This document shows, one piece after another, positions 17,511 to 59,314 of a stretch of 64,000 nt of DNA. The translations under genes and the position numbers were made by a program. Under the pieces are notes generated by a model. The model made no database searches. It saw only the letters and a program-made list of their open reading frames with translations, and was not told the origin of the DNA. Within the stretch, counting starts at the first letter, position 1. The number at the start of each line of letters is the position of its first letter. The stretch spans positions 1,025,165 through 1,089,164 of the forward strand of contig JACOUP010000008.1 in assembly GCA_016177765.1 (NCBI GenBank), given 5' to 3'. The DNA is from Deltaproteobacteria bacterium. Its GTDB lineage: Bacteria > UBA10199 > JACPAL01 > JACOUP01.

Positions 17511-18658
17511 TGGACTGGAACCAACGATACACGTTTAATTTTCCGACCCTCATCCGTTTTGGCAAAGGGGTGATTGAGGAGTTGGGACCGCACTTGAAAG
17601 AAAAGGGGGTTCGTCGTCCCCTCGTCGTGACTGATCCTGGTCTCGCCCTGCTTCCGCTGTTTCAAACAGTTATCGCCTCACTCAAAAAATCCGGTGTTGG
17701 GGTCGAAGTCTATTCCGGCATCCACAAGAACCCGGTCAAGAGCGATGTCCTGGGAGGGGTGGGTCAGTATAAAAAATCGGCTTGTGATGCCATCGTCGGG
17801 ATCGGCGGGGGGGCCTCGCTGGATGTGGCGCGGGCCATCGCCCTCAAGGTCAACCATGCGAGGGACCTTTTTGATTATGAAGACTCGCAAGGGGGAGAGC
17901 GGTTGGTCACCGGAGAGATCCCGTATTTTGTCGCCGTTCCGACGACCAGCGGCACCGGGAGCGAGGTCGGTCGGTCGACCGTCATTTCCGATGATGCCAC
18001 CCACGAGAAAAAGATCCTCTTTTCACCGAAACTGATGGCCAGAATAGTTTTTGCCGATCCGGGGCTCACGATGGAACTTCCCCCCGTCATCACGGCGGCG
18101 ACCGGAATGGATGCCCTGACCCATAACATGGAGTCTTACCTGGCCAGGGGGTTTCATCCAATCTGCGACGGAATCGCCCTGGAGGGGATCCGCCTGATTG
18201 GCGAGAGTTTTGTGAGGACGGTCAACAAGCCGGATCTGGAGTCCCGTAGCAAGATGATGGTGGCGGCTATGATGGGGGCTGTTGCCTTTCAGAAAGGGTT
18301 GGGGGTGGTGCATTCAACGGCCCACCCGCTCTCGACCCTTTTTGACCTCCATCATGGCCTGGCTAATGCCATCATGTTGCGCCATGGTGTTGCCTTCAAT
18401 GCCGATGTTTGTGAGGAGCGTCTGGCCAACATTGCCAAGGTCCTCAATCTTGCCGACCCGGGGAGCCAAACGCTCATCCGATACTTAGGAGAGTTGAACG
18501 AAAAGATTCATCTCCCGCTCCGCCTCTCTTCCCAGAAGGTGGGGGAGAAGGATGTCGGTCCTCTTTCACGGCTCGCTTTTCAGGATGTTTGCCATCAGTG
18601 CAATCCGAAACCGGTGACGGAGTCCGATTTTCAGAAAATCTACCGGGTGGCCCTATGA
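17510..18658 (+). CDS. Iron-containing (group III) alcohol dehydrogenase
   Basis: GGGSxxD and metal-binding His motifs; TGATG overlap with the upstream gene. Confidence 0.8.
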   Translation: MDWNQRYTFNFPTLIRFGKGVIEELGPHLKEKGVRRPLVVTDPGLALLPLFQTVIASLKKSGVGVEVYSGIHKNPVKSDVLGGVGQYKKSACDAIVGIGGGASLDVARAIALKVNHARDLFDYEDSQGGERLVTGEIPYFVAVPTTSGTGSEVGRSTVISDDATHEKKILFSPKLMARIVFADPGLTMELPPVITAATGMDALTHNMESYLARGFHPICDGIALEGIRLIGESFVRTVNKPDLESRSKMMVAAMMGAVAFQKGLGVVHSTAHPLSTLFDLHHGLANAIMLRHGVAFNADVCEERLANIAKVLNLADPGSQTLIRYLGELNEKIHLPLRLSSQKVGEKDVGPLSRLAFQDVCHQCNPKPVTESDFQKIYRVAL

Positions 18659-19425
18659 TTAAAATTGGTGTCTCCGCCTGTTTTCTCTACCCGGATCCCG
18701 GCCGGACGGTCTTCGGCCTGAAGACGCTGACCTATCTTGAAAGCGACATGGCCCGGTATCTCTCCAGACGCGGCATCTTGCCGATCCTGATCCCCAATCT
18801 GGCAGAGGAGAACCTGAAGGAATTTCTGGAGGCGATGGATGGTTTTGTCTTTCAGGGGGGGAGCGATATCGCCCCCCAGTCGTATGGTGAAGAGCCGATC
18901 AGGCAGGGAGGGGCCTCCAAGGGGCGGTGGCCCGGCGACCCGGAGAGAGATGCCTATGAACTGAAAATTTTAGACTATGCCGTCCGCCAGGACAAGCCGG
19001 TTCTGGGGATCTGCCGCGGTTGCCAGTTGATCAACGTCTATTTTGGCGGGACGCTTTATCAGGATATCGCTTCCCAAAAGGAAGGGGCCCTCGTTCATCG
19101 GGATGCGATGCGGTATGACCATGTCCACCACCGGATTGAGTGGAAGCCGGGAGGCCTTTTGGGCAAGGTTTACAAGGAGGACAAGGCGACGGAGGTCAAT
19201 TCGGTCCATCATCAGGGGATCAAGGATCTGGGCAAGGATCTTCTGGTGGAGGCGATCTCCCCGCAGGACCAGCTGGTGGAGGCGGTTTCCTACAAGAAGC
19301 CGGATGAAAAATTGGTGCTTGGCGTCCAGTGGCACCCGGAATTTTCGCATACCCTGAAGGATCAGGTGATCCGGCCGGAGCCTCTCTACGATTATTTTTT
19401 GAAAAAGGTGAAGGGTTCCGCTTAG
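18655..19425 (+). CDS. Class I glutamine amidotransferase-like gamma-glutamyl hydrolase (PuuD family)
   Basis: GICRGCQ nucleophile elbow and a His/Glu pair; ATGA overlap with the ADH stop. Confidence 0.8.
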   Translation: MIKIGVSACFLYPDPGRTVFGLKTLTYLESDMARYLSRRGILPILIPNLAEENLKEFLEAMDGFVFQGGSDIAPQSYGEEPIRQGGASKGRWPGDPERDAYELKILDYAVRQDKPVLGICRGCQLINVYFGGTLYQDIASQKEGALVHRDAMRYDHVHHRIEWKPGGLLGKVYKEDKATEVNSVHHQGIKDLGKDLLVEAISPQDQLVEAVSYKKPDEKLVLGVQWHPEFSHTLKDQVIRPEPLYDYFLKKVKGSA

Positions 19426-19430
19426 CGATC

Positions 19431-20813
19431 ATGAAGGTCTTTAATCCAGCCACAGAAGAGTTGATCCGGGAACTTTCCGAAGATTCCGCTGAAAGTTTGC
19501 GAAAAAAGGAATCAGTTTTACGGAGGGGGTGCTCCACCCAAGGTTTGGAGTCATGGCGGCAGGTTCCTTTGGAGGAGCGTATTCAGCGCCTGGCCCGATT
19601 TTCAGAAAAATTGGAAAAAAATAAAAAGGAACTGGCCCGCATTTTGACTAATGAGATGGGAAAGCCGATCCGGGAGTCTTTGAATGAGATTGCAGGGGCC
19701 AGGAGCCGCATCCAGTTTTTTCTGGACCACTCTGCAGAAATTCTAAAATCCAGGGTGGTGCATGAAGAGCCGGGGATGACCGAATCCCTTGAATTTGAAC
19801 CGTTGGGTGTTATCGCCAACATTTCCGCCTGGAACTATCCGTATCTTGTCGGTGTCAATGTTTTTGTCCCGGCGTTGATCGCCGGGAACGCTGTTCTCTA
19901 CAAGCCCTCTGAGTATGCCACATTAACCGGACTGGAAATCGCCCGGCTTTTGTGGGAATCGGGTGTGCCGGAATCGGCCTTTCAAATTGTGGTTGGAGGG
20001 GCTCCAGTCGGCCAGGCCCTTTTGGATCTCCCTCTGGATGGTTATTTCTTTACCGGTTCTTACCGGACCGGGCGGTTTATTGCCGGTGAAGTGGCGTCAA
20101 AGATGGTCCCCTTCGGGCTGGAGCTTGGCGGGAAGGACCCCCTCTATGTCGCCGAGGATGTCACGGATCTCGCCAAGGTTACCGCCGCGGCGGTCGAAGG
20201 GGTTTTTTACAACAACGGCCAGAGTTGTTGCGCCGTTGAAAGGATCTATGTCCACCAAAAAATTTATGATCGGTTTCTTGAAAATTTTTTAAAAGGGGTT
20301 GGCCGTCTCAAGGTTGGCAATCCGCTCGAGCCGGAGACGACCCAAGGGCCTCTGGCCCGCCCGGCCCATCTCCAGTTTCTCGAAAAACAGGTCCGGGAGG
20401 CGGTCGGCCAGGGGGCGAAGGTTTTGACCGGTGGCCGACGGTGGGGGAAGAAGGGGGGTTTTTTTGAACCGACTGTCTTGACTGAGGTGAATCACAAGAT
20501 GAGCCTCATGAAGGAAGAGACCTTTGGCCCTGTCATCGGGATCCAAAGAGTTTCGGGGGATGAAGAAGCGGTCCAACTCATGAATGATACCGAATATGGC
20601 CTCACCGCCTCCGTTTATTCCGGTAGTGAGGAGAGGGCCAAGAAGATTTTGAGACAGATCAATGCCGGGACCGGTTATTGGAATTGTTGCGATCGGGTTA
20701 GCCCCTACCTCCCGTGGTCCGGGCGGAAAAATTCAGGGATCGGTTCCACACTTTCATTCTTGGGGATACAGGCCTTTGTGAAACCCAAGGCGTACCACCT
20801 ACGTCTGCTCTAA
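19431..20813 (+). CDS. NAD(P)-dependent aldehyde dehydrogenase
   Basis: ALDH motifs ELGGKDP and catalytic Cys in NGQSCCAVE; 460 aa. Confidence 0.85.
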   Translation: MKVFNPATEELIRELSEDSAESLRKKESVLRRGCSTQGLESWRQVPLEERIQRLARFSEKLEKNKKELARILTNEMGKPIRESLNEIAGARSRIQFFLDHSAEILKSRVVHEEPGMTESLEFEPLGVIANISAWNYPYLVGVNVFVPALIAGNAVLYKPSEYATLTGLEIARLLWESGVPESAFQIVVGGAPVGQALLDLPLDGYFFTGSYRTGRFIAGEVASKMVPFGLELGGKDPLYVAEDVTDLAKVTAAAVEGVFYNNGQSCCAVERIYVHQKIYDRFLENFLKGVGRLKVGNPLEPETTQGPLARPAHLQFLEKQVREAVGQGAKVLTGGRRWGKKGGFFEPTVLTEVNHKMSLMKEETFGPVIGIQRVSGDEEAVQLMNDTEYGLTASVYSGSEERAKKILRQINAGTGYWNCCDRVSPYLPWSGRKNSGIGSTLSFLGIQAFVKPKAYHLRLL

Positions 20814-24016: not shown

Positions 24017-26101
24017 TTATCGTTTTCTCATCCTGCGGACTAGGGCAAGGCCCATACCGATCAGGATCATCCCGAAGCCCTGCATTCCAGGAGCGGCACT
24101 CCCGCCGATCGTGCAACCACAACCGCTATCCGCGGTCAGGGCTGGCAGACCGTCGCAGACGTCGCCGATCCCGTTCCCGTTGGCATCCGCCTGATCCGGA
24201 TTGGCGATGTTGCAGTTATCCGGTCCCTCCGTGCAGAGTCCTTCAATCGGGTCAACGCCGTCGCAGATGCCGTCGCCGTCGATATCCCCTTCACAGGCAT
24301 CGCCCAACCCTTCAATCCCGCCGGTATCCTCCTGCCCCTCGTTCTTGACGATGCGGCAGTTGTCCGGTCCCGTTTTACAGACGTTCGGGATCTCGGCCCC
24401 GCCGTCGCAGACCGCATCCAGATCGCAGTCGGAATTCAGGGCGCAGAGTCTTGGGTACAACGGAGAGGTGCACTCTTCATAATCATCCAGTCCGTCGCCG
24501 TCGGTATCGACCTTGTTCTTGTCGGTCCCGCAGAGGTCTTCATCAAAGTCGGTCAGGCCGTCGTTATCCAGGTCGGAAAGAGAAGTCGCCTGCACGCAGG
24601 CATCGCCGACGCCGTTTCCGTCCGTATCGGTCTGGTCCGGGTTCGGGACGTTGATACAGTTGTCCTGCCCGTTGTTCAAGCCGTCACCATCCGAGTCACA
24701 GGTCTCATCGTTCGGGAGACAGGCTGGGGCCCCGTTGCCCCCTCCACCACCGCCCCCCCCGGTGACAGCGATCGCCACAGGGAATGACTGGATATGGGAG
24801 ACGCCGTTGTCATCCTTCGTTTCGCACTCAATCGCCTGGTCTCCACCCGGTGTTGGGGCAAAACTGGTTTCAAAGATAATCGAACAGGTATCATCAGCCT
24901 GATTGGGGCAGACCGCCTCAACCGCTGTTGCCGAGCCGCCGCTTACCTTGATGCTGGAGGCAAACTGGGCGGTATAGGTGGCGCTGACAGCAATCCCTGT
25001 CTCTGTCGTGGTCACCGTCGGGGCACTGGAGACACAGTTCGGCACGTTGCTGCCACCCGGGTTAGTCCCTGTCGGGCAACCAGGTCGTGCTGGATCCGGT
25101 GTTGCTCCGGCCGCTTCGGCGGGGCATTGGTCTTCACAGTTCTTGACGCCGTCCCCATCGGTATCCCCCTGGTCGGCATCATCGGCCGCACAGCCGGTCC
25201 CGGGGGCCGCTATCGGGCAACCGGTCGCCGGATCAATCCGTTCCGTCGGGTTGGAACCGGGGCACTGGTCTACAGAATCCTCAACCCCATCTCCATCCGC
25301 ATCCGCAACACCTTCTTGCATAATAACAACGGAGGGGTCTAAAAACATCTTGGCACTCGTATATGGATTTCTTAAGCTGTCTACCGCCTGGGGTGCACCA
25401 TCCACGCAAACGATATGGTCTTTGACCCCATCTCCCTCTGGGACAAGAATCGTGAGGTAGGCCAAAGTATGGTAGTTTGAAGCCTCCCCCCGGATGTCAA
25501 AGACGCAACCCTCTGGGTTGGCGGTCAGGTACTCCATGGCATCAATCGTTGTCTTGGAGAGGAAACCGGAGATTGTCAACCCCGCTTTGGCGGTCCGACG
25601 ACAGTCCGCTGAAACACAGATATCATCCCCGACATTCTCCCCACTAATCACAAACGGTTCCGTAACAGTGACGGTGATCTCCTCATCCGTACAGTTGGGT
25701 GGAGTCCCGCCGGCCAATTCATCACGGGTAACAGTGTTTGGCTTTGTATCAAAAAAGACAACCGGCTTGACCGTGGTCAAGTCGGTATCTCCCTCAAAAC
25801 AATAGGTCTGGTTGTTGAAGTAGCCGATCGCTGTGGCCAGGTGATCCCCGTCAATGGCGCAGACATCCCTGGGGCCGCCGTCTTCACCGTCTCTGAAGAT
25901 GTTGGTTGCCCCATCGGCGCATTCGCCCTCTTCCAAGAAGGAGCTTACCTTTCCGACCGAGCTGAACTTCCCAATAAAGGAGTAGAGGCGGTTGAGAGGG
26001 GCCTTGATGAGATTAAACTCGAAGGCGTTCGCCTCTGGTTGCCCGATTAGTCCCAGCAGGATTGCCGAGATCATAATGACGCTAGATCGTTTAAGCTTCA
26101 T
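24017..26101 (-). CDS. Secreted calcium-binding thrombospondin type 3 repeat protein with C-terminal GCGC/TM/basic sorting tail
   Basis: Signal peptide MKLKRSSVIMISAILLGLIGQPEANA; multiple DxDxDGxxDxxD motifs; Gly8 run; C-terminus ...SGCGCTIGG...LIGMGLALVRRMRKR. Confidence 0.75.
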   Translation of the reverse strand: MKLKRSSVIMISAILLGLIGQPEANAFEFNLIKAPLNRLYSFIGKFSSVGKVSSFLEEGECADGATNIFRDGEDGGPRDVCAIDGDHLATAIGYFNNQTYCFEGDTDLTTVKPVVFFDTKPNTVTRDELAGGTPPNCTDEEITVTVTEPFVISGENVGDDICVSADCRRTAKAGLTISGFLSKTTIDAMEYLTANPEGCVFDIRGEASNYHTLAYLTILVPEGDGVKDHIVCVDGAPQAVDSLRNPYTSAKMFLDPSVVIMQEGVADADGDGVEDSVDQCPGSNPTERIDPATGCPIAAPGTGCAADDADQGDTDGDGVKNCEDQCPAEAAGATPDPARPGCPTGTNPGGSNVPNCVSSAPTVTTTETGIAVSATYTAQFASSIKVSGGSATAVEAVCPNQADDTCSIIFETSFAPTPGGDQAIECETKDDNGVSHIQSFPVAIAVTGGGGGGGGNGAPACLPNDETCDSDGDGLNNGQDNCINVPNPDQTDTDGNGVGDACVQATSLSDLDNDGLTDFDEDLCGTDKNKVDTDGDGLDDYEECTSPLYPRLCALNSDCDLDAVCDGGAEIPNVCKTGPDNCRIVKNEGQEDTGGIEGLGDACEGDIDGDGICDGVDPIEGLCTEGPDNCNIANPDQADANGNGIGDVCDGLPALTADSGCGCTIGGSAAPGMQGFGMILIGMGLALVRRMRKR

Positions 26102-26350
26102 GGTAGACTCCTTTGACAATGAATAGTTCATTGCTCTAACAGGATTATCGGAAAGGGCAGGGGAAGGTTGCTAAAAAAATTAAAGGACGAAGGCCGGATC
26201 GGCAGGGTCCTCTCCAGGACCTATTTAAGATGTATATAAAGGAGGGGGGGACATTTCTCCTAAAAACTAAAATTATTAGCAACTATGGTCCGGGGGGAAC
26301 GATAATAGGCATGAAACGGTTAAGCGGTCTTACTCTATAAGGAGGCAGTT

Positions 26351-27124
26351 ATGGCTGGTCCACAAGAATTGACGGTATCAACCTCGATGGTTCATGGAAC
26401 CGGTATGACCGGCTTTAACGATAGCCATGTGATGGGGACAACCGACCTGCCTCTTCAGACCTTGGCCATCGATCTGAATGTTGGCGAAGGTCCCTTAGGA
26501 GAAAATACTTTTGCAGGTCTGGAGTTTGGTAGATTCGGTTTGGTTGGTGATGGAGGGTTTGGCCTTTTTGAGGCCCGTTTTGGTGGTCAGCAGGCCAGAC
26601 CCAAAGGATGGGGTGCCCGGTTTTTAGGGTTTTTTGAAACCGGTTTCCGATACTACCCTGATGATTTAATCAAAACGACAACGGTTCCAGGGAAGACAAC
26701 TGTGGCACCGGCGGCTGAGGGGACTGTTACTGATCCCCAGGATGCCTCTTATGACATGGGTGCCAGGACTCAATCGGGTGGACGGGTACCGGCGCCCGGG
26801 GGACGCCAGCCGGCAGGAGCCGGTGCGGGGACAGCCCCAGAAACCCGGACCTATTCTCAGGCAACGACGGCTAAGGACAGATCAACGACAACGACTGATA
26901 CCGCAAAACCATGGAATTTGGGGGTGGTCGGTGCGGTCGATCTAGGGTTTTTTGGTGATGTTGTGTCAATTACCGTGAGGCCTGAGGTGGGTGGTGGTAT
27001 CGCCGCTGGCGGGAGCACCGGGTTCGAATTGCAAGGACAGTACGGAGCGATGTTAGTCCTTGGGTTTAACCTTGATGGCGGCTCTTCAGGGGGGGCGACA
27101 GGAGGGGGCACGCCCGACCTCTAG
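26351..27124 (+). CDS. Hypothetical Gly/Thr-rich protein
   Basis: AGGAGG ribosome-binding site; no recognisable domain. Confidence 0.4.
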   Translation: MAGPQELTVSTSMVHGTGMTGFNDSHVMGTTDLPLQTLAIDLNVGEGPLGENTFAGLEFGRFGLVGDGGFGLFEARFGGQQARPKGWGARFLGFFETGFRYYPDDLIKTTTVPGKTTVAPAAEGTVTDPQDASYDMGARTQSGGRVPAPGGRQPAGAGAGTAPETRTYSQATTAKDRSTTTTDTAKPWNLGVVGAVDLGFFGDVVSITVRPEVGGGIAAGGSTGFELQGQYGAMLVLGFNLDGGSSGGATGGGTPDL

Positions 27125-27181
27125 TCCTGCTGGACCTCCTGCAGGTACATTTGAATAAGCTCGTTAAAGTAGTTTGATCAA

Positions 27182-27221
27182 GGGCGGTCCTCCTTCAGGT
27201 GGACCGCCCTTTTTGGTTTTT
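27182..27221 (+). terminator. Rho-independent terminator
   Basis: GGGCGGTCC-loop-GGACCGCCC followed by TTTTTGGTTTTT. Confidence 0.7.
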
Positions 27222-27315
27222 AATTCATCAGAATTACAGAAGGAAATCTCGTCTGCGTCAAGTAGAAGAGTTCAATCACCTTGCCTAGAAATCTCTAGTA
27301 AGCATACCTCATGAT

Positions 27316-27337
27316 TTTATGAGATAGATCTCATAAA
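27316..27337. promoter_or_regulatory. Perfect 10-bp-arm AT-rich palindrome TTTATGAGAT-ag-ATCTCATAAA (candidate operator)
   Basis: Read directly; sits in an AT-rich promoter region about 115 nt upstream of the first paralog gene. Confidence 0.45.
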
Positions 27338-27450
27338 TCAATTGAGGAAATGGATGAAAGTAGCCCCTTTTTGAAAATGCCGCAACTTCCCCCCAGTTTT
27401 ACCGATAATCCCAACAGGGGGTAACCCCCCTGAAACGAAAGGGCTTTTGT

Positions 27451-28515
27451 ATGGCGACAGCGGCAGAAATTACAGGGCGTTTAAGGGGGACGATGGCCGA
27501 TGGTTACTTGAGCCAACCCGAGTGGAGTAGCTTCAAGGAAGGGATCAAGACCTCTTGGTCGGATGGGGGTCGGGAAGGGCTCAATGATTTTATTGGGGAG
27601 GTTGCGGGACAACCACACTGGGTGGTGGATCCTGCCATTTTGGAAAAATGGAACAAGGGGACAGGTCAGGGGATTGATAGTGATCCTGTTCGGGTTATTC
27701 AGGGACGGCAAGAACAGGCCTTGAGGATTAAGGGATTGTTGGAAGAAAAAGTGGGCGACAAGGTTTTGAGTGAGGCCGATTGGGATGGTTTAAAGAGTCA
27801 GATCGGTTCTGTTTGGGACAAGGGGGGGTTGGCGGGGATTATTTTATTCTTGGCAGATAACGGGGATCGATGGACGATTGAAGGAAGCTTAAAGACAAGG
27901 ATTGAAGAGAAGCTGGTCAGTAAGGGGTTTGTTCAGGCCTCTTTGTTGGGTGGGATCAAGGTGCATGAGGAGGCGGCACCGCCAGCCGCTCCGGCGCCTC
28001 CTCCCGCTCCTGCTGATGGGGGATATGATTTTGAGGTGCTTGATCTGAGTGATGATAGGGCCCCGGCAGAACCGGCACCTCCGGCAACGTCGAGAATGCG
28101 AGGAGGGGATCCTGAACCTCCTCCAGCGCCTCCATCACCCGCCGCCGGACGACCCGTGAGAGGGACAACCGCTTGTAGTGAGGCCGTCAAAGGGCGGGTG
28201 AATGATGCCCTGTCCCCCTTGTTGGGGCCCCATGGGTCGCTGAAGGATATCAAAGCCAAGTCTCAATTCCAACTCCTCCATGGAAAGATAGATATCGAGT
28301 TTCATATCCCGGAGGCGGAATCCGATGGGACAATGTCTATTGAGGTCGATGTGTCTCAGTTAAAAGGACCACAGGATCACACTTCCTTTGGGGAAGCGGT
28401 TCTGGGAAAGCTACGGGCCACTGCCAAGTTGACCTCTGTGGGGACTCCAGCGGGGGAAGGAACCTGTTTCTACAAAGTTCCGGTACCGGTTGAAGGGAGT
28501 ACTTCAGGGTATTAA
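27451..28515 (+). CDS. Paralog A of a tandem 4-gene family: novel ~170-aa N-terminal domain, Pro/Ala linker, unique C-terminal domain
   Basis: AAAGGG ribosome-binding site. Conserved MADGYLSQ...WSDGG...WDKGGLAGIILFL N-domain shared with the three downstream genes. Confidence 0.7.
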   Translation: MATAAEITGRLRGTMADGYLSQPEWSSFKEGIKTSWSDGGREGLNDFIGEVAGQPHWVVDPAILEKWNKGTGQGIDSDPVRVIQGRQEQALRIKGLLEEKVGDKVLSEADWDGLKSQIGSVWDKGGLAGIILFLADNGDRWTIEGSLKTRIEEKLVSKGFVQASLLGGIKVHEEAAPPAAPAPPPAPADGGYDFEVLDLSDDRAPAEPAPPATSRMRGGDPEPPPAPPSPAAGRPVRGTTACSEAVKGRVNDALSPLLGPHGSLKDIKAKSQFQLLHGKIDIEFHIPEAESDGTMSIEVDVSQLKGPQDHTSFGEAVLGKLRATAKLTSVGTPAGEGTCFYKVPVPVEGSTSGY

Positions 28516-30687
28516 ATGATGACCTCCATTAATGAAAAACTGACACAGGCAATGGCGGATGGTTATCTGAGCCAATCCGAGTGGGATAGCTTCAAAGAAG
28601 AGATCAAGTCCTCTTGGTCGGATGGGGGTCAGGAAGGGCTCAATAGTTTTATCAGTGATGTTGCCGATCGTCCGAATTGGGTAGTCGATCCTGCCATTTT
28701 GGAGAAGTGGGGCAAGGGGACAGGTCAAGGGATTGAGGGGGGACCTGTTTCGGAGATCCAGAAACGGCAGGACCAGGCCGCCCGTGTCAAGGCCTTGCTG
28801 GAAGAGAAGGTCGGGGACAAGGTTCTGAGTGAGACCGATTGGGACAGTTTAAAGGGAGAGATCGGTTCTGTTTGGGACAAAGGGGGGTTGGCCGGGATTA
28901 TTTTATTCTTGGCAGGTGATCATGATAATCACTGGGAGATTGAGGGGAATTTAAAGACAAGGATTCAAGAGAAGTTAGTCAAGCCTGGGTTTGTGAGTAT
29001 CGCACTTTTGAGTGGGATCAGGGTGCATGAGGAACCGGCCGCTCCACCACCACCGCCTGAACCTGCGGCGGAACCGGCACCAGAACCGATTCTTCCGCCT
29101 GCCGCAGGAACAGCGAGGCCAGACAGTCTTACTATTGATGAAGAAACCGGTCCGGGGGCGGGATCGCCTCCACCACCGGCCGCGCCACCTGCTCCTCCCG
29201 AGGCGGCCGCTCCACCACCTACTCCTCCTCCCCCTGCAACGGCTGAACGGCCCCTCAAAGCGGGCGAGGCGAGGGTCAAATGGCAGATTACCGACGGGGA
29301 TGGACACCCCCTGGCAGGGGTGACAATCACGTTGGGGGGGGAGGCCTCCGATGTTGAAGGAATGCCCCCTTATTCTGACCTTGTCGATGGAAATCCTCTC
29401 ACAACGGATAAAGACGGTTTCGCCTCCATCGACCTCCCCACAGGGCTCTTAAAATACACGACAGGGAAAAAGGGTTATCAGACCTATACCGTTGACGATG
29501 GGGCAGATGTAGATTTGGCGCCGGGCAAGATCTATACCCGTAATGTCCGGATGCCGCCGGTTGCCCATGTCCCGATTGATTGGAGGGTGACCGACCTCTT
29601 GAGGGAGACCTACCTGGAGGGGGCGACGGTTACCGTGGAAGGGACCTCCAGCGGCGACGGGGAAAGTTATGGTCCTGTTGTCTATCATACGGGTAAAGAG
29701 GGTCGGCTTCAGCGTGAGGAGGGTGGCAGAACAATCGCTCCGGCAACTATCCCTACCGGGGATTGTCGGGTCAAGGTCCACAAAGAGGGGTATCGGTCCT
29801 TTCCCGACGCGAGGATCACTATTGAAGGGGACAAGGTTGTCCGGCAATTTGCCCTGGTGGAGGAGGGACTCCCGTTACCGTCTGAGCTTGACGGGCAGAA
29901 CGTCTTTCGGTTGATTCGGGATACGGAGCTCCTTGTCCCGACAAATCGTGGATTCATCGGGAAAAAAAAGGACGATGACAAACGGAAGGCAATTAAGGAT
30001 CTGGAGAAGACAAGTAGCCTCCTGGGGATCGCCTTTGAAAAAACAGAGGCCCTAAGGCATGGAACGGTTGCCGCCGATCTTCTCCGGCTTGCCGAAGAGG
30101 TGGATTCCCTCCTTGTGGATCTCTACGATTCGATCCTGGATGCCGACGCGATTGTCCAGTGTCACCGGAGGCGCCTGAATCGGGAGGAGACGTCGTCGGA
30201 GCTGCAATACCTCCTCGCCTCGGCGCTGGATGTCTTGGGGGGACAACAGATATCAAGGGCCTCTATATTCCAGAAGTATGCCGAGGCGGTCCTTTATTAC
30301 AAAAAGTTGGGAGAAAAGGACCCTCATTACGACGAGGCCCAAAAGGCGTTAGGAAAGTTGGGGTATGTTGCCTTTCTGCCGAAGGTGACCTCCCTCTTTA
30401 ATCAGATCAATGCTGGAACATGGTCATCCATAAGGGAGACACTGCAGAGACAAGGCGGCCCTCAACAGGTAGAGGTGGGCCTTCGTGTGGATGATGATGG
30501 TTTTGTGGACGAGGTTGAGACCGATCCGAGGGCCTACCCTTTGGAAGCATTCTTCAGGGGGCGGAATATCGGGGTCTTCAGAAACCCTGAGAATGGAGGA
30601 AGGAAGGAAGAATCCTACCCCCTCGCCTTTGATATTGATTTTTCTGGGGATACCCCGAGGCTGATCTTGCCGGATATAGGGCCTTAG
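28516..30687 (+). CDS. Paralog B: same N-domain, Pro/Ala linker, carboxypeptidase-regulatory-like beta domains and a TPR-like helical tail
   Basis: About 85% DNA identity to paralog A across the N-domain. G8 tract at 29334-29341. Confidence 0.7.
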   Translation: MMTSINEKLTQAMADGYLSQSEWDSFKEEIKSSWSDGGQEGLNSFISDVADRPNWVVDPAILEKWGKGTGQGIEGGPVSEIQKRQDQAARVKALLEEKVGDKVLSETDWDSLKGEIGSVWDKGGLAGIILFLAGDHDNHWEIEGNLKTRIQEKLVKPGFVSIALLSGIRVHEEPAAPPPPPEPAAEPAPEPILPPAAGTARPDSLTIDEETGPGAGSPPPPAAPPAPPEAAAPPPTPPPPATAERPLKAGEARVKWQITDGDGHPLAGVTITLGGEASDVEGMPPYSDLVDGNPLTTDKDGFASIDLPTGLLKYTTGKKGYQTYTVDDGADVDLAPGKIYTRNVRMPPVAHVPIDWRVTDLLRETYLEGATVTVEGTSSGDGESYGPVVYHTGKEGRLQREEGGRTIAPATIPTGDCRVKVHKEGYRSFPDARITIEGDKVVRQFALVEEGLPLPSELDGQNVFRLIRDTELLVPTNRGFIGKKKDDDKRKAIKDLEKTSSLLGIAFEKTEALRHGTVAADLLRLAEEVDSLLVDLYDSILDADAIVQCHRRRLNREETSSELQYLLASALDVLGGQQISRASIFQKYAEAVLYYKKLGEKDPHYDEAQKALGKLGYVAFLPKVTSLFNQINAGTWSSIRETLQRQGGPQQVEVGLRVDDDGFVDEVETDPRAYPLEAFFRGRNIGVFRNPENGGRKEESYPLAFDIDFSGDTPRLILPDIGP

Positions 30688-30740
30688 TCCCCCTCACCCC
30701 AACCCTCTCCCGCAAGGGGAGAGGGGGAATTTGTCAATTT
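30688..30740 (+). terminator. GC-rich hairpin terminator after paralog B
   Basis: CCCTCTCCC-gcaa-GGGGAGAGGG with outer arms TCCCCCTC / GAGGGGGA and a T-rich tail. Confidence 0.55.
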
Positions 30741-30783
30741 TCTTGATCTCAGCGGTCTGATCTTATAGGGATCATCGTTAGCG

Positions 30784-32253
30784 ATGGCCCCCTCCGGTGT
30801 TTCTGCCACTGTTTATGACAGTCTATTCGAGAAGATGTCAGACAATCATTTTACCTCGTCTGAGTGGGATGGTTTGAAGAATTCAATCAAGGATCACTGG
30901 TCGGATGGGGGTCAAGAAGGTCTGGATCATTTCATCAGGGAGGCGGCTTCTCGGGCCGGTTGGGTGGTTGACCTTCCGGTGGTGGAGAAATGGAGGGGGG
31001 CAATCGGTTACGGTCTCGACGAGAAGTCTGTTCATACGGTCTGGGTGAGGAGTCTGCTGGAAGAGAAGGTCGGGGACAAGGGTGATTCACCTAAGGTTTT
31101 GAGTGAGGTGGACTGGGATGACCTGAAAGATGAGATCAGTTCGGTCTGGGACAAGGGGGGGTTGGCGGGGATCCGGTTATTTCTCTCCGGGTGTGGGGGA
31201 CGATGGACGATCGAGGGGAGTCTCAAGACAAGGATCCAGACCAAACTGGTTGATACAAATTTTATTGAAGCCGCTTTATTGAGTGGGATTGCGGTCTATA
31301 CACCACCCCCTCCACCGGTTCCTGAACCTGGGCCGCCAGAACCCCCGGCGGTAAGGCCTCCGGCACCACCCCTGCCCCCTGCTGGTCGCTTGGCCCCAGT
31401 CCTGCCCGGTGGGCCGTTGCCACGCAAACCGGTAGTCCGGTTATCCCTCCATCTGGTGGATAAATCCAACAAACCGATTTCAGGGGCGGAGGTCACCTTT
31501 GGCGGGACGGCGACGGATGGGACGGCGTATTCCCTCCTGGGGAAGGTCACGACGGACAGAAACGGACGCTTGAAGCGGGCCGAATTTCATCCCGGGAAGG
31601 TCACTCTGCATATTTCCAAAGAGGGGTACCAGCCGGTCGATCAGGAATTGGAGATTAGGCCGAAGATGACTCCGGAGATGACGATTGATCTCCAGAGACT
31701 GATCGACCTGGAGGGAGAGGCCCTTTTTGCCGAGGTGAAAGAGATCCTGGCCCAAGGGAAGAGGTCAGAGAGGGGTCCGCCGGCCGTTGTTGAGGAGGCG
31801 ATGGTGGCGTTGCGGGAAGGGGAGGAGAGGCTCAAGGCCTTTCTGGCAAAGGTGGCTCACCCAAAGACCGATTCGAGGCAGGATCGATCCCTCCGTGAAG
31901 AAGGGGAAGAACTCTTGAAACGTCTCCTTTTTGGTCTCGCCCAGCTCTATGAAAAGCAGGAAAAATACGACGAGGCGATCGCTATCTACCGGCAACGGTC
32001 AAAAGAGGGTTTCTTCCGTTATCTGATCGCGGGGGACCTTGAGGCCAAGGGGGATTTGGTTAAGGGGGACAAGCCGGCCGCTGTTGCCTCCCGTCGAAAG
32101 GCCTACACAGAGGCAATTGCCGAGTACCGGGCCTACGTCGACTGGCATGACCGGCAGGGGGCGAGACTGGAAGGGATCTCCGTGAGGGAGGAGGCGGAAG
32201 AGGCGATAGCCCGGCTCCAGAAGGCCCTTGCGGCAAAGAGGCCCAACGAATAA
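30784..32253 (+). CDS. Paralog C: same N-domain (with a 15-nt palindromic-element insertion), Pro-rich linker, carboxypeptidase-regulatory-like domain and TPR-like tail
   Basis: MSDNHFTSSEW... N-domain; GDSPK insertion at 31078-31092 relative to A, B and D. Confidence 0.7.
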   Translation: MAPSGVSATVYDSLFEKMSDNHFTSSEWDGLKNSIKDHWSDGGQEGLDHFIREAASRAGWVVDLPVVEKWRGAIGYGLDEKSVHTVWVRSLLEEKVGDKGDSPKVLSEVDWDDLKDEISSVWDKGGLAGIRLFLSGCGGRWTIEGSLKTRIQTKLVDTNFIEAALLSGIAVYTPPPPPVPEPGPPEPPAVRPPAPPLPPAGRLAPVLPGGPLPRKPVVRLSLHLVDKSNKPISGAEVTFGGTATDGTAYSLLGKVTTDRNGRLKRAEFHPGKVTLHISKEGYQPVDQELEIRPKMTPEMTIDLQRLIDLEGEALFAEVKEILAQGKRSERGPPAVVEEAMVALREGEERLKAFLAKVAHPKTDSRQDRSLREEGEELLKRLLFGLAQLYEKQEKYDEAIAIYRQRSKEGFFRYLIAGDLEAKGDLVKGDKPAAVASRRKAYTEAIAEYRAYVDWHDRQGARLEGISVREEAEEAIARLQKALAAKRPNE

Positions 32254-32453
32254 ATTCGTGGGCTAATTTAAAACAATTCCTCTGGAATTCCGGAAGGAAT
32301 TGTCATTGGATTAGCCGCCGAATTTATTCGGTCGGCCAATGGGAGTGGACACCCTGAGCTTGTCGAAGGGTCATTTTGAGTTTGTCAACAGACTGCTAGT
32401 CATTTCAGGCACAACTCCCCAGTTTTTCAGTCGATAATACTGATGAGGTTCTT

Positions 32454-33647
32454 ATGTCACTTCGAGACGTTGTCTCCTCTATCCCCCTTTCTGCGGTTGC
32501 CGGTCCACCGGCCCCAGGGACCGGCAGGGTTATCGGCCGTGTCCTGGATGCTGAGACCCGCAGGCCTGTCGGGGGGGCGGTTCTACAATTTAGGCGGGTG
32601 GGGCCTCCCCCCACTGAAGTAGCCGCTGCCGATTCCCCACCTCCTCAGACCTTTCACGATGCCTTAGTCGATAAGATGTCGTTCGATAATTATCTGAGCC
32701 AGATGGAGTGGGATGATCTGAGGGATAGAATCAGGGCCGATTGGGATAGTGGGGGTCGGGAGGGGCTGGATCTCTTTATCCGCGAGGCGGCTTCTCGGCC
32801 GAAATGGGTGGTTTCACTCCCGGTAGTGGAGAAATGGAAGAGGGCTGTGGGGTATGGTTTAGATGAAAAAGCGGTGAATACAGTCTGGGTGAGGAGTCTG
32901 CTGGAGTGGGAGGTTGCGGACGCTTTCCTGGGTGAGGCGGACTGGGATAACCTGAAAGATGAGATCGGTTCGGTCTGGGACAAAGGGGGGTTGGCGGGGA
33001 TCCGGATATTTTTAGCGGGGTGCGATGATCGGTGGGACATTCAGGAGAGTTTAAAGGCGAGGATTCAAGCAAGACTGGTGGCAACGGGGTTTATTGAGGC
33101 GGATTTATTGAAGGGGATCCGTACGTCGAAATCGGAACCACCGAGATCAATGCCGGCCGGTGGTGCCGCTGAGGCCGAAGAGGCGGCGGATGAGTTTTCT
33201 CGTGCCGGGAGTGACTTTGAGGATGGGCTGGCCGAGGCGGCAGAGGCGAGGAGGAGTGGAGCTCTCGAAGGACCGAGGGTCCTTGACTGTGACGCGCTGG
33301 CGGCGGAGGTGGGACGGATTATGGGGACTCTGGAAGGAGATTTTGGTGAGGCGATACGGGAGTTAAGGATGTCAGAGGCCACCATTGATGGGGAGATCAC
33401 GGTCCATATCCCCTTTTCGCCGATCTCGCCGCCCGTTCCGCCCCGCATGATCATCCGGCAGGCCCGTCTTTTTTCCCCAAAAAGGGTTGATGAGGCGGCG
33501 GTTCAAACATTTAAGGAGAGGGTGCGGGGGATTCTCAACAATGCCTTTGAATCCGAGGGGCTTCAGGCGAAAGACGAAAGAGGATGCCTTGTCGCTTGGA
33601 CGATCAAGCTTCCCGAACGGACGCGTGTTGATGGTGATTCGGAATAA
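32454..33647 (+). CDS. Paralog D: N-terminal leader carrying linker and carboxypeptidase-regulatory-like remnants, same conserved domain, acidic unique C-terminus
   Basis: The conserved domain starts at MSFDNYLSQMEW (Met at 32676). The upstream 74 codons resemble a shuffled cassette fragment. Confidence 0.6.
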   Translation: MSLRDVVSSIPLSAVAGPPAPGTGRVIGRVLDAETRRPVGGAVLQFRRVGPPPTEVAAADSPPPQTFHDALVDKMSFDNYLSQMEWDDLRDRIRADWDSGGREGLDLFIREAASRPKWVVSLPVVEKWKRAVGYGLDEKAVNTVWVRSLLEWEVADAFLGEADWDNLKDEIGSVWDKGGLAGIRIFLAGCDDRWDIQESLKARIQARLVATGFIEADLLKGIRTSKSEPPRSMPAGGAAEAEEAADEFSRAGSDFEDGLAEAAEARRSGALEGPRVLDCDALAAEVGRIMGTLEGDFGEAIRELRMSEATIDGEITVHIPFSPISPPVPPRMIIRQARLFSPKRVDEAAVQTFKERVRGILNNAFESEGLQAKDERGCLVAWTIKLPERTRVDGDSE

Positions 33648-43175: not shown

Positions 43176-45575
43176 TCAGTTGGCCTCAAGGAGTACGTCG
43201 AAGGAACCGGAGATAGTTCCAGTGAGGGTCTGATCGCTTTCGACGCCGTTGGTGACGACACGTTTTTTACCGCTCATATTGGCCGTAAAGGTGCCGGTCA
43301 TCCGGCTCCCCCCCGTTTCGCCATAACTGGTCAGGGTAATCGTTCCCCCCGTTGAGCCGAAGACCACCTGTTCCCCGTTATCATCATGGGTGATCTTGGG
43401 AGAGTTGAAGATGATACTGGCAGAGCCGGTATTTTGCTCGAAGACGGTATCGGTTTCGTTCAGGTTGTAGGTATTGCCGGCATTGATATCGTCAGGGTCG
43501 GTAATGATATTGACCATTGTTTGAGTGAGATCTGTGGCTGAGGCCCCTTCGGAGGCGAAGGCGGTGGGGAGGTTAATCCGTTTGACATCCCCCGTAAAGG
43601 TGCCGAAGCCGCCAACGATCGTCTTGGGGTCGAACGAGATATTGGCGCCGTTGATCTTGATCGTGGCCGAAAAACTGTTTGCCGTCGTTGTCGTTTCCTC
43701 AGCAACCTTGGCCAGCTCAAAGTCGACATCAATCCGTCCGATGGTGGCGGCATTGGAAATGACCACGGTTAACACGTCGCCGGTTGAAACACCAAACCCC
43801 TTGATCCCGACCGAATTCCCGGACATTTCCGTCCCGACGGCGGCCCCGGCCCGGTAAACCGCGGCACGAACGGCATTACCGACGGCCCCGGCACTGGGGG
43901 AAAGGGTGAGGGTGACATCAACGCCGTTTTCGACCGCCTTGGTCGGGGTGATCTTCAAGACCTTGGTGGCAAATTCGTTGATCTTCTTCACGGCACCGGT
44001 CAGGCTGGAGTCTTTGAGTTCTTCCGGGTCGACTGTTTTGGCGACGATCGATTTGGCGGAAAAGAGGTTGGTGTTCAAGACACCGGCGGCTGTTTCTCCG
44101 GAGCGAAGGACGCTGTCGCTGGAATGTTCAATCGCCCGGTCTCTCGCGTATTTGGCATAGACGGTGGCGAGGTCCTTTTTAAATTTGCCCTGGAGGGTTG
44201 CGTCGAGGGCGTCGGTGACGGTGTCCCAGGGAGGGCCGAGTGGCGCCGACTTGGTCCCGTCCGCCACGAGCGCATCGATCCCTGCCTTGAGTTTGGCATA
44301 ATAGGTCTGGAGGTAGCTGAGACTTTTGTTGTTGTAGACACGGCCGACGTAGGCGAAGAAATCCTGATTGGAATAAGCCTCCGAACCGCCGGCGTTTGGA
44401 ACCAAAAGATAATTGGAGAGGATATGCGTTTCGGTTGCGGTAGCGGAGCGGACCTGCGGGGTGGTTGCCGCCGTGTCGATTGTTACTCCGTAGGTGGCAG
44501 CACTCCCCTCGGCGGAACCCTGAAGGGTATCCCCAAAACCGGTGTCGTAGCCATTTTGGACCGAATGGAACATCTCATGGGCCACCGAGGCGAAGACAGT
44601 CCCCAGGGCGTTGGTGGCGGTGGTGTCGGCGATTCGGGAAAAACCGACGTAGAGGATCCCGAAGCTGAAACCAAAATGATTGGCGCTTTCGTCAAGCCCT
44701 CCCGGTTCAAACTTACTTCCGCCATTGAAGAGAGAGATCGGCATATAATTCTTGCCGCCGACGGCAATAACCTGAAGGTTCGGTTGTCGGAAACCGGCGG
44801 CCTGGTAAATGGCGCCGGCGGCCACCCCGTTATTGCTGACCCTCTGGACAATCACCGTTTGGATCTGGGCATCGGTCAGGCTGGCGGCAGGGATGTTCAA
44901 GATACCGGAGATGACAGTCCTTAGATTGGGGTCCCTCGGGTTGTAATAGCTGATCCACAAATTGGTGCTCCACGGGGCCTCCGCCGTTGCCTCTTTGGAG
45001 GGGTCCAGGGTCATCGACGAGCCCTCGGACGATGTGGCGGTCTGCAGGTTGGGGTTGTAGACGACAGTGTAGATGGCGTCTTTGGGAAGTCCCTTTAGCT
45101 TGAGGGTGAGTTGGGAACCGCTCAAACTTCCAGGAACCCAGAGGGTCGTTTTGTTGTCCGGATCAAAGACCTTGATGTAAACCTTGATGGCGTTCTGGTC
45201 TGCCGCCGGGATGGAGGAGTTATCCAGCTGAACCGTCATCGTAACATCCTGGGTGGTGATAAAGTGCATGATGGAATCAAGATTTAAATCGTAGGAACTG
45301 GAAACGGTTTTTTCTCCCTCTTCCAGGAGATCGGAGGGGGTGTCGACGATTTCGATTTCCGGTTGGGCCCGGAGGGCGGCTGGCATGCTGTCATCGGCGA
45401 TAATGACCTGAAACTTACCATCCTCTGAGGTGAAGGTTCCGCCGGTGACACCATCTTCGGTATACTCCGGATCTTCCTTGTCCGGGGTGTCGTCATCGTC
45501 GTCATCCCCGCCACAGTAAGAAAGCGAGAAGACAAGGGAACAAATCAGCAGACCCAACAGGAAAAGCCGCCGCAT
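43176..45575 (-). CDS. Large lipoprotein with HExxH zincin-like motif and poly-Asp tract
   Basis: Lipobox LSYC followed by GGDDDDDD; VAHEMFHSVQ zinc-binding motif; 799 aa. Confidence 0.6.
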   Translation of the reverse strand: MRRLFLLGLLICSLVFSLSYCGGDDDDDDTPDKEDPEYTEDGVTGGTFTSEDGKFQVIIADDSMPAALRAQPEIEIVDTPSDLLEEGEKTVSSSYDLNLDSIMHFITTQDVTMTVQLDNSSIPAADQNAIKVYIKVFDPDNKTTLWVPGSLSGSQLTLKLKGLPKDAIYTVVYNPNLQTATSSEGSSMTLDPSKEATAEAPWSTNLWISYYNPRDPNLRTVISGILNIPAASLTDAQIQTVIVQRVSNNGVAAGAIYQAAGFRQPNLQVIAVGGKNYMPISLFNGGSKFEPGGLDESANHFGFSFGILYVGFSRIADTTATNALGTVFASVAHEMFHSVQNGYDTGFGDTLQGSAEGSAATYGVTIDTAATTPQVRSATATETHILSNYLLVPNAGGSEAYSNQDFFAYVGRVYNNKSLSYLQTYYAKLKAGIDALVADGTKSAPLGPPWDTVTDALDATLQGKFKKDLATVYAKYARDRAIEHSSDSVLRSGETAAGVLNTNLFSAKSIVAKTVDPEELKDSSLTGAVKKINEFATKVLKITPTKAVENGVDVTLTLSPSAGAVGNAVRAAVYRAGAAVGTEMSGNSVGIKGFGVSTGDVLTVVISNAATIGRIDVDFELAKVAEETTTTANSFSATIKINGANISFDPKTIVGGFGTFTGDVKRINLPTAFASEGASATDLTQTMVNIITDPDDINAGNTYNLNETDTVFEQNTGSASIIFNSPKITHDDNGEQVVFGSTGGTITLTSYGETGGSRMTGTFTANMSGKKRVVTNGVESDQTLTGTISGSFDVLLEAN

Positions 45576-45701: not shown

Positions 45702-46100
45702 ATGTTCCGCATGAAGCCGGTTTCAACCAGGACTTTGCAGGTCTTTAAACAGTGGGGCAAGGAAGGGGGGAAGAGGCGGGCCAAAAACCTTTCCCCTTCG
45801 GCCCGTCAGGCTATTTCGAGGCATGCCGCTCAAACGCGTTGGGGTCTTCAAAAAACTCATGAGTCATCCATGTCCAGTGTGCGTCTTAGAGGAGCGCTTT
45901 GGGGAAATCCGGTCTATTTGGAAGAGGTTCTCTCGCATGGAAGCTTGAGAGACTGGAAAGAACTGCGCCGCAGAATTGCCGATCACCCCTTTGGCGCTGA
46001 AGCCGGTGCGCTCGAGAAAGTTCTTAATGCGATCAGTATCTACGGAACCATTTCTTTATGGAAAGGGATCCTTGGCAATTTACGGGGGAATTTTTTGTGA
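45702..46100 (+). CDS. Hypothetical small protein, candidate partner of the AbiEii toxin
   Basis: Overlaps the downstream AbiEii gene by 43 nt. Confidence 0.35.
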   Translation: MFRMKPVSTRTLQVFKQWGKEGGKRRAKNLSPSARQAISRHAAQTRWGLQKTHESSMSSVRLRGALWGNPVYLEEVLSHGSLRDWKELRRRIADHPFGAEAGALEKVLNAISIYGTISLWKGILGNLRGNFL

Positions 46101-46771: not shown

Positions 46772-46786
46772 GGTATTTGTTTTATG

Positions 46787-46857
46787 CTCGGGGACTAGGA
46801 TTCGAACCTAGATTTACGGAGTCAGAGTCCGCAGTCCTGCCGTTAGACGATCCCCGA
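46787..46857 (-). tRNA. tRNA-Gln (anticodon CTG)
   Basis: Reverse complement folds as acceptor TCGGGGA/TCCCCGA, anticodon loop CTCTGAC, T-loop GGTTCGAATCC, discriminator G. Resembles E. coli tRNA-Gln. Confidence 0.75.
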
Positions 46858-59223: not shown

Positions 59224-59314
59224 TCTCACAGAGGACCTATCATTTTCCTCCCCTTTTTCCACTTAAAAAACCCTATTGCCTTAGAAAAATGGATTTGTTA
59301 GGTCTCCCCCCCTC

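Follow-up and report, generated by a model that had tools for sequence, protein, structure and literature searches.

What kind of proteins open with one and the same domain and then continue into quite different ones? The question is raised by four consecutive genes, here called A-D (locus tags HYS22_07580-07595), which span 27451-33647 of the window, i.e., the whole 64-kb stretch of DNA that was analysed, taken from a 1.36-Mb contig of the metagenome-assembled genome (MAG) "Deltaproteobacteria bacterium" of an uncultivated groundwater organism. An earlier inspection of the letters alone, called below the sequence-only reading, had seen in them a set of polymorphic effector or surface-protein cassettes, either recently duplicated or subject to gene conversion. 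The follow-up described here points instead to an old and undescribed family, whose members are predicted to share a promoter of the sigma-28 (FliA) type; no other feature of the locus is as informative as this promoter, which had not been picked up before. In the NCBI annotation A and D are "hypothetical" proteins, and B and C are named after their CarboxypepD_reg domain.

A common domain of two helical units

All four open reading frames (ORFs) are present on the + strand at the coordinates collected in Table 1, and the claim that they share an N-terminal domain (N-domain) was confirmed: over ~165 residues there are 63 invariant columns, the pairwise amino acid identity is 47-71%, and the domain profile finds each paralog with E-values of 1e-78 to 1e-80. 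The N-domain is itself an internal tandem duplication of a unit of ~80 amino acids (aa) (hhalign of half 1 against half 2: 96.4% probability, E 1.2e-9), with the approximate signature L..x..D..LS..EW..hK..I...W..GG.EGL..Fh.Ea...P.Wh.D..hLEKh....G.GhD...V..I..RQ, and from the homology of the halves it follows that the evolutionary unit is a helical module of ~80 aa. A confident structure model predicts the domain to be all-helical. Conservation falls on Trp, Leu, Phe and Gly, residues of the type that forms a core and with no catalytic signature, a pattern that makes a structural or binding module more probable than an enzyme. The domain gave no match at E <= 1 in Pfam and NCBIfam and neither a sequence match nor a fold match in the PDB, and searches with PADLOC and PHROGs added nothing for A-D; as far as these libraries reach, it belongs to no described family, as had been suspected. 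The nucleotide conservation of the segment SVWDKGGLAGI was considered as a signal of recombination and rejected, being explained by the 50% usage of GGG for Gly in this genome.

To follow the family beyond the window, 1.84 billion representative proteins were searched exhaustively with HMMER (E <= 1e-3), and 20 matches were returned: A-D themselves, 14 real relatives and two proteins that share only a motif (P0013 and P0019; proteins and contigs are referred to by P and L numbers). All 14 relatives come from uncultivated MAGs or metagenomes labelled "Deltaproteobacteria", and in 14 of 14 the domain is N-terminal and the tails are varied. The layout of a conserved N-domain, a spacer and a variable C-terminus, described earlier for A-D, is family-wide and was seen in every relative found. 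A single ~80-aa unit is present in P0007, P0012, P0014, P0016, P0017 and P0020, and in P0018 a further, partial copy is added at the C-terminus. The MAG of the window has six members, A-D and, at other sites among housekeeping genes, P0007 (a thioredoxin fusion) and P0011; five more are in the MAG Q7S00 (GCA_030649755.1), two in the MAG Q7S98 (GCA_030649435.1), and the remaining ones are on metagenome contigs. Homologous arrays, which the sequence-only reading had proposed to look for among relatives, exist as tandem pairs in L011 (P0015 with the gene that follows, E 1e-37) and, as a weak case, in L010. Scans for N-domain motifs in GTDB species representatives, JGI metagenomes and IMG/VR gave no close relatives, a taxonomic placement by TolB in GTDB gave none either, and no Bdellovibrio homologue was detected in the census.

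The two motif-only matches are phage-tail-like metagenome proteins, each with 6-7 copies of DGYLS(Q/S)TDW(D/S)TFN(N/S)K. Their tail-fibre repeat DGYLSQTDWDTFNNK (also DGYLSxxDWxxFNxK) matches the stretch of ~20 residues with which the N-domain unit opens, ADGYLSQSEWDSFKEEIK; it was rejected as a relative because the likeness is limited to these residues, which probably reflect a convergent helix capping-box and hydrophobic-staple motif and are no evidence of homology.

Several of the relatives' loci deserve a brief description. In L014 (GCA_030649755.1, JAUSFP010000178.1; 1-3166), P0016 and P0014 flank an opposite-strand gene with Fic and MerR domains. P0006 (L012, 1673-4811) overlaps by 4 nucleotides (nt) a downstream gene for a 759-aa protein with DUF4116 repeats, and the pair is probably co-transcribed. 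In L016 (962-4210), flhB (Bac_export_2), an unknown 299-aa ORF and P0017 form a same-strand string that continues into rpsB, tsf and pyrH. P0011 and P0020 both lie beside a pseudouridine synthase gene and were tried as positional orthologues; the synthases are only 23.5% identical and the idea was dropped.

The absence of signal peptides from A-D, also claimed earlier, was borne out: neither a signal peptide nor a transmembrane (TM) helix was found in the four proteins, and a hydropathy scan detected no 19-residue hydrophobic segment in any of them. The hydropathy of the N-terminal ten residues is at most 1.0 in A-C and 1.9, a borderline value, in D, as against 2.8-3.4 for true signal peptides of the same genome. 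A mildly hydrophobic, uncharged N-terminus (hydropathy 1.9-2.5) followed by Pro, Thr and Ala is present in four members from three lineages, namely D (from 32454), the second L011 gene (from 11294), P0017 (L016, from 3071) and P0020 (L015, from 4589); these starts are too weak and too uncharged for a classical signal peptide.

A promoter shared across lineages

The promoter came to light through an inverted repeat (I2, 26142-26171 / 27382-27411), the two arms of which are promoter-like copies directed toward the gene for a TSP_3-repeat protein and toward A. Its consensus is GCAAC-N16/17-CGATAA, with GCAAC at -34 to -30 and (G/A)CCGATAA at -15 to -8. When the window was searched for CAAC-N16-CGATAAT with one mismatch allowed, four exact matches were obtained, where 0.7 sites were expected, and no further site. 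The four lie within 6.3 kb (26144-32438), each just upstream of a start codon and two of them divergent around a gene for a 257-aa protein; the spacer ahead of C has no such motif. In 145 kb of non-redundant DNA the N16/17 pattern occurs at 16 sites, against 0.4 expected. It precedes 12 of the 14 family transcription units, from at least seven lineages, and 6 of ~118 other genes (Fisher p ~4e-11), a p value with some circularity in it, since part of these genes had served to discover the motif, the predictions for P0008 and P0010 being independent. These two, from two further lineages, were fetched after the motif had been defined, and both have GCAAC-N16-GCCGATAA 9-11 nt before the start.

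Among the other members, the motif stands ahead of P0006, P0014, P0016, P0015, the second L011 gene, the upstream L010 gene and P0020, and ahead of P0011 with one mismatch in the -35 element (AAAC); it is absent from P0017, the second gene after flhB and on its strand. All the sites listed have CGATAA without variation, but it was part of the search pattern. Among bases outside the pattern, G precedes CAAC in 8 of 9 sites and C precedes CGATAA in 9 of 14, and the full GCCGATAA is found ahead of P0008, P0010 and the second L011 gene. Outside the family, the motif precedes genes for TSP_3 proteins (in two lineages), an OmpA-like protein, the 257-aa protein, uvrA and a Pro-rich protein that has a membrane anchor at its C-terminus.

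A known promoter that invites comparison is that of Pseudomonas aeruginosa fliC, which has TCTAAAG at -36 to -30 and GCCGATAA at -15 to -8 (PMC12784957). With the N16 spacing, GCAAC occupies the position of TAAAG in sigma-28 promoters, where 14-15 nt separate it from the extended -10 element, and the geometry is identical to that of fliC. The -10 element together with its position is, as a matter of sequence likeness, the hallmark of sigma-28/FliA promoters, and the distribution described above is taken to show that the family is transcribed from a conserved, predicted alternative-sigma promoter.

A transcription start predicted 8 nt after the -10 element would make several of the family's mRNAs leaderless or nearly so, with those of P0006, P0014 and P0016 predicted to be leaderless, which fits the lack of Shine-Dalgarno sequences. 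The promoter position also corrects the annotated starts of P0014 and P0008. In P0014 the promoter lies 7 nt before an internal start, MSLSVYNLL, the annotated one being too far upstream.

Old duplicates under purifying selection

By the identities of the N-domains and a deletion of 8 residues that is shared, the tree is (A,B)(C,D). The tails group differently, B going with C and, weakly, A with D. The C-terminal shuffling that had been read from the sequence thus stands, and the discordance implies either that modules were exchanged or that neighbouring N-domains were homogenised. What did not stand is the age proposed for the duplications. The N-domains of A and B, put at about 85% identity in DNA, are in fact 75% identical (79% over 300 nt and 88% over 121 nt), and the idea that the duplication is recent, or that gene conversion is still going on, is contradicted by the synonymous divergence, with a dS of 0.74 for A-B, 1.0 for C-D and more than 1.8 for the other pairs, and by a dN/dS of 0.17-0.29. 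A-D were duplicated long ago and are under purifying selection. The window is matched at 100% identity by three metagenome assemblies, over up to 8.4 kb, so that the locus is not hypervariable.

These data also bear on the suspicion that the array consists of decaying duplicates or of artefacts of gene prediction, to which only a negligible probability is given. It could draw on the "hypothetical" type of annotation of all members, on the orphan tails and on a low-confidence model of the tail of A. Against it stand the low dN/dS over a saturated synonymous divergence, the confident model of the N-domain, a promoter conserved at the correct distance in at least seven lineages, and the identical sequence in independent assemblies; by selection and promoter data it is effectively refuted.

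Spacers, interchangeable tails and the question of toxins

After the N-domain, A, B, C and most relatives have a Pro/Ala-rich stretch, and the spacer of D is acidic; weak NCBIfam matches to GltJ, BimA and MXAN_5187 fall on the Pro-rich stretches. B and C then have one CarboxypepD_reg domain each (PF13620; 36.9 and 37.7 bits, with the Pfam gathering threshold at 32.3). For C this agrees with the sequence-only reading, including the TPR-like tail, where the Pfam TPR matches are sub-threshold; for B, which had been credited with several such domains, there is only the one significant match and a second, weak beta-sandwich that is PEGA-like (E 0.098). The tail of B found no relatives in an index of 5.8 billion proteins. 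The Pfam scan detected no domain in A or D, the tails of which have ~100 residues between two Cys, around a G.I.[IV].[FV]HIP strand. The likeness between these two tails is marginal (z 2.0-2.3, with ~3% of shuffles matching), and the AlphaFold2 model of the A tail is unreliable (predicted local distance difference test score < 50).

The relatives add further modules, i.e., TPR tails in P0005, P0015 and P0018, thioredoxin in P0007, a bare HExxH motif in P0011, and in P0014 a tail of 3-4 predicted TM helices (three hydrophobic segments were computed and a fourth seen by eye), this protein being the sole member with a hydrophobic 19-mer above 1.6. An AgmX/PglI TonB-C-like tail (NF033768, curated cut-off 40) is present in P0008 (48.7 bits) and in the second L011 gene (44.6 bits); neither NF033768 nor TonB_C was detected in A-D. 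Two further candidates were rejected. A shared tail domain was sought with a profile of the P0005, P0018 and L010a tails, which gives A an E of 0.013 and D nothing and which is unrelated by hhalign to the AgmX-type tails, and a MshEN-like motif for cyclic di-GMP in P0009 reaches only E 0.13 and 12 bits against a cut-off of 38.

The inventory of tails bears on the effector hypothesis, according to which A-D are polymorphic effector or toxin cassettes whose N-domain traffics through a type VI secretion system (T6SS), a type VII secretion system (T7SS) or a system like that of contact-dependent inhibition, with the C-termini as payloads. A conserved N-domain with variable C-termini, several copies per genome, no signal peptide, the HExxH motif of P0011 and the discordance of tails and N-domain phylogeny would all suit it. 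Yet no recognisable toxin domain is present in A-D, where LXG, MIX, PAAR, Rhs and other marker domains gave no match in Pfam or NCBIfam, and the payloads are binding or scaffold modules. Small immunity-type ORFs are missing between the array genes: the start of B abuts the stop codon of A (TAAATG), and the B-C spacer (96 nt) and C-D spacer (200 nt) hold only hairpins and one promoter, which leaves no room for them. Genes of a secretion system were found neither within 30 kb on either side nor anywhere else in the window, nor in the nine other family contexts inspected, such as those of P0007, P0011, P0015, P0018 and P0020. Moreover, the duplicates are old and under purifying selection, and there is no variation between samples. 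The view of A-D as toxin cassettes fails each defining test run here and is not supported; as an explanation of the family it is very improbable.

What the family may do

The explanation preferred here is a tentative one, quite possible if short of probable, and holds that A-D are modular adaptor paralogs with the N-domain as docking module, co-deployed in a FliA-like programme. Each protein has three parts: the helical N-domain of two ~80-aa units, a Pro-rich or acidic spacer, and an interchangeable, mostly non-catalytic C-terminal module. The proteins would be produced together in a motile, dispersal or attack-phase programme, and the N-domain would be the common dock through which various binding modules are tied to a single shared partner or structure, which may be the cell envelope or the polar/flagellar apparatus. 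The polyproline spacer would serve as a rigid arm, and the beta-sandwich, TPR, TonB-C-like AgmX/PglI, thioredoxin and HExxH tails as binding modules. In the window as well as in a second lineage, the family's promoter also serves neighbouring genes whose products are secreted or surface proteins (TSP_3, OmpA-like).

Several points weigh against this proposal. AgmX/PglI, CarboxypepD_reg and Cys-bracketed tails are normally extracytoplasmic and most members have no export signal, a combination that purely cytoplasmic docking leaves unexplained, and a further point is the mildly hydrophobic stretch without charge at the N-terminus of D, the second L011 gene, P0017 and P0020. The motif ahead of uvrA means that the regulon is not purely envelope-related, and the nearby tolQRAB genes are on the other strand and without the motif, so that no link to them is established. 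As for the promoter, its -35 element GCAAC matches the sigma-28 TAAAG in 2 of 5 bases, and, judged by its letters, an "AAC ... CG" promoter could belong to a sigma factor of the extracytoplasmic function (ECF) type.

A trafficking role, as suggested in the sequence-only reading, may still fall to the N-domain. The missing export signals would find an explanation if the N-domain were a new export or targeting module for signal-less envelope modules, by the flagellar gate or by another route, and if FliA, in an uncultivated deltaproteobacterial clade that is possibly predatory, controlled a programme of dispersal or attack phase to which the family belongs; this is considered unlikely. Equally doubtful is its more specific form, in which the members are non-flagellar substrates of flagellar type III export and the N-domain is an export or chaperone-binding domain. 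The genes for the Fed and Cia proteins of Campylobacter jejuni are sigma-28-dependent. These non-flagellar proteins are secreted by that bacterium's flagellar type III secretion system, which provides a precedent (PMC12445086). The sigma-28-type promoter, the absence of Sec signals, the extracytoplasmic type of the modules, the Cys pairs in the tails of A and D and the position of P0017 in the string flhB-orf299-P0017 would all be in keeping with such export. Known flagellar export signals, on the other hand, are short and disordered, while the N-domain is a folded, Trp-rich structure of 165 aa; Pfam detects no Flagellin_N or rod/hook domain; the fusion of a single unit to four TM helices in P0014 better suits a cytoplasmic N-domain; and flhB, in another MAG, is the only flagellar gene seen beside a family member, in 1 of ~14 contexts. 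The related idea of a flagellin-like array (tandem, sigma-28-dependent and without signal peptides) was rejected, as Flagellin_N, Flagellin_C and Flg_bb_rod had no Pfam match in A-D and the C-termini are not conserved.

Alternatively, the proteins could be purely cytoplasmic scaffolds or regulators of a sigma-28-like programme, with the N-domain as an oligomerisation or partner-binding module, e.g., in a polar hub, a motor or chemotaxis adaptor, or a binder of sigma or anti-sigma factors, and with the Pro-rich stretch as a ligand of GYF- or SH3-like domains. This, too, has a low probability. Most members are without an export signal; the N-unit of P0014 comes ahead of a multi-TM domain, an order of parts that suggests an N-in topology; a cytoplasmic location is possible for TPR, thioredoxin and HExxH modules alike; and Pro-rich sequences are cytoplasmic ligands in the GltJ-AglZ system of Myxococcus (PMC11135422). 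The AgmX/PglI tails argue the other way, since they are periplasmic in the characterised proteins (PMC11135422), as do the CarboxypepD_reg and Cys-bracketed tails, which would be unusual in the cytoplasm, and the co-regulated neighbours, which are secreted surface proteins.

Layout of the locus and its neighbourhood

Table 1. Coordinates of the array, its predicted promoters and the adjoining features in the window.
Feature	Position	Strand	Description
TSP_3-repeat surface protein gene	24017-26131	-	Pfam TSP_3 29.6 bits; co-regulated neighbour, outside the family
Predicted promoter, TSP_3 gene	26144-26170	-	CAACCTTCCCCTGCCCTTTCCGATAAT; exact CAAC-N16-CGATAAT; I2 partner of the A promoter
Predicted promoter, 257-aa gene	26280-26306	+	CAACTATGGTCCGGGGGGAACGATAAT; 45 nt before ATG; AAGGAGG ribosome-binding site
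257-aa Gly-rich protein gene	26351-27124	+	no signal peptide, no family match; co-regulated neighbour
Intrinsic terminator, strong	27181-27217	+	GGGCGGUCC...GGACCGCCC and U-run; z = -5.1, 0/200 shuffles fold as well
Predicted promoter, gene A, probably A-B(-C)	27383-27409	+	CAACTTCCCCCCAGTTTTACCGATAAT; 41-42 nt before ATG
Gene A	27451-28515	+	354 aa; NCBI MBI1910012.1, annotated "hypothetical protein"
A, N-domain	27469-27972	+	aa 7-174; then Pro/Ala-rich spacer and unique ~115-aa tail bracketed by Cys242/Cys339
Gene B	28516-30687	+	723 aa; start according to gene callers 28519
B, N-domain	28528-29034	+	followed by long Pro-rich spacer
B, CarboxypepD_reg	29284-29553	+	aa 257-346; then second weak beta-sandwich and orphan helical tail
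GC-rich hairpin	30688-30728	+	B-C spacer; fold z = -2.15
Gene C	30784-32253	+	489 aa
C, N-domain	30811-31299	+	followed by Pro-rich spacer
C, CarboxypepD_reg	31450-31695	+	aa 223-304; then TPR-like helical tail
Long imperfect palindrome/hairpin (inverted repeat I1)	32240-32337	+	directly 3' of gene C; fold z = -3.1
Predicted promoter, gene D	32412-32438	+	CAACTCCCCAGTTTTTCAGTCGATAAT; 15-16 nt before ATG; predicted 5' leader 8-9 nt
Gene D	32454-33647	+	397 aa; 60-aa N-terminal extension ahead of N-domain
D, N-domain	32652-33131	+	aa 67-226; then acidic spacer and tail bracketed by Cys279/Cys378

The hairpin between B and C possibly acts as a terminator or attenuator of low strength. Two independent metagenome contigs (L001 and L002) both terminate at 32265, inside the palindrome 3' of C, which suggests that assembly breaks at the hairpin. 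The intergenic hairpins were also considered as dispersed repeat elements, an idea rejected because each is unique in the window. The position of the predicted promoter implies translation of the N-terminal extension of D (32454-32633, the first 60 codons), which may be the remnant of a recombination event. It has a mildly hydrophobic start, then residues 23-50 (GRVIGRVLDAETRRPVGGAVLQFRRVG), which by eye resemble the first two strands of CarboxypepD_reg and are not detected by Pfam, and then PPP. At its 3' end D is convergent with ppx, and in the ORF list D and ppx/gppA overlap by 44 nt (33604-33647). The ppx ORF also overlaps that of TolB, and its true start is probably an internal Met further downstream.

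On the other side of the array, a strong terminator parts the gene for the 257-aa protein from A. In the TSP_3 protein a signal peptide begins at Met11 (start 26101; hydropathy 2.78, n-region charge +3), and the protein ends in a Gly/Cys-rich segment, a TM helix and the tail RRMRKR, an arrangement like the MYXO-CTERM anchor that scores weakly (16.3 bits against an NCBIfam cut-off of 20) and is also MtsC-like. In L011, too, a gene for a TSP_3 protein with the same promoter adjoins the family genes. The 257-aa protein and the product of L011 8088-9938 both start with "MAG", are rich in beta-strands and outer-membrane-like, and have no signal peptide; one of the two ends in an OmpA-like domain, and for both starts there is support from ribosome-binding sites and from the distance to the promoter (42-45 nt).

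The window as a whole is core chromosome, with genes of the TCA cycle, a puu-like cluster, transporters, ppx, tolQRAB, transketolase and ctpA. The puu-like cluster for polyamine or gamma-glutamyl catabolism (16167-20813) contains a glutamine-synthetase-like gene, an Fe-alcohol dehydrogenase, a peptidase C26 and an aldehyde dehydrogenase, with amino-acid permeases on its flanks. At 46058-46857 a gene for an AbiEii-type nucleotidyltransferase toxin adjoins a tRNA gene (46787-46857, - strand), and the site may be a small mobile or defence islet. Two further ORFs on the - strand, 43176-45575 (798 aa) and 58138-59262 (373 aa), had no Pfam match.

Significance and comparison with known systems

The analysis adds a new domain with neither a sequence relative nor a structural one in current libraries, now with a regulatory context across at least seven lineages, and turns a set of anonymous "hypothetical proteins" into a testable regulon; the corrected start codons (P0008 and P0014) and the predicted leaderless or near-leaderless transcripts are by-products. 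It also leaves a puzzle, namely that module types normally found outside the cytoplasm are attached to proteins without an export signal. If the FliA-like control is real, this would be the second clade after Bdellovibrio in which a broad envelope programme, not a flagellar one, is driven by the flagellar sigma factor.

The closest likeness in regulation is that to Bdellovibrio bacteriovorus, where TTAAG-N16-CCGATA is found at 66% of the attack-phase promoters and the FliA regulon comprises surface anchors, proteases and many uncharacterised proteins (PMC3627812). The family's promoters have the same -10 core, CCGATA[A], at the same spacing (TTAAG-N16-CCGATA; also TCTAAAG-N14-GCCGATAA), and differ in the -35 element, which is GCAAC and not TAAAG.

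In the layout of the proteins, the family resembles GltJ (AgmX), GltG (PglI) and TonB/TolA, which have the same order of parts, i.e., an N-terminal anchor or interaction region, a Pro-rich spacer and a small C-terminal globular domain; the architecture of GltJ is that described in Myxococcus (PMC11135422). With GltG and GltJ the likeness extends to the AgmX/PglI C-terminal domain in P0008 and the second L011 gene. The family differs from all four in having, except in P0014, no N-terminal TM anchor and a soluble docking domain in its place, and from GltG and GltJ also in being without ZnR, GYF and FHA domains and in an N-domain unrelated to theirs. With TonB/TolA it is the layout that is alike; a link to a motor of the TolQR, ExbBD or AglRQS type is not part of the likeness.

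The third group to be compared comprises the MIX proteins of the T6SS, the LXG proteins of the T7SS and the mycobacterial PE/PPE proteins, which combine a conserved, helical, non-catalytic N-domain of ~100-200 aa with variable C-termini. As in the family described here, there are several paralogs per genome, some of them in tandem, and no Sec signal peptide. The family has neither sequence nor fold likeness to these proteins, no linked secretion system, no toxin domain and no immunity gene, and its C-terminal modules are binding-type domains. On the sequence comparisons made, A-D and their relatives are best classed as an undescribed family that follows a known theme, that of a conserved N-domain present in several copies with variable C-termini, within a putative regulon of the sigma-28 type.

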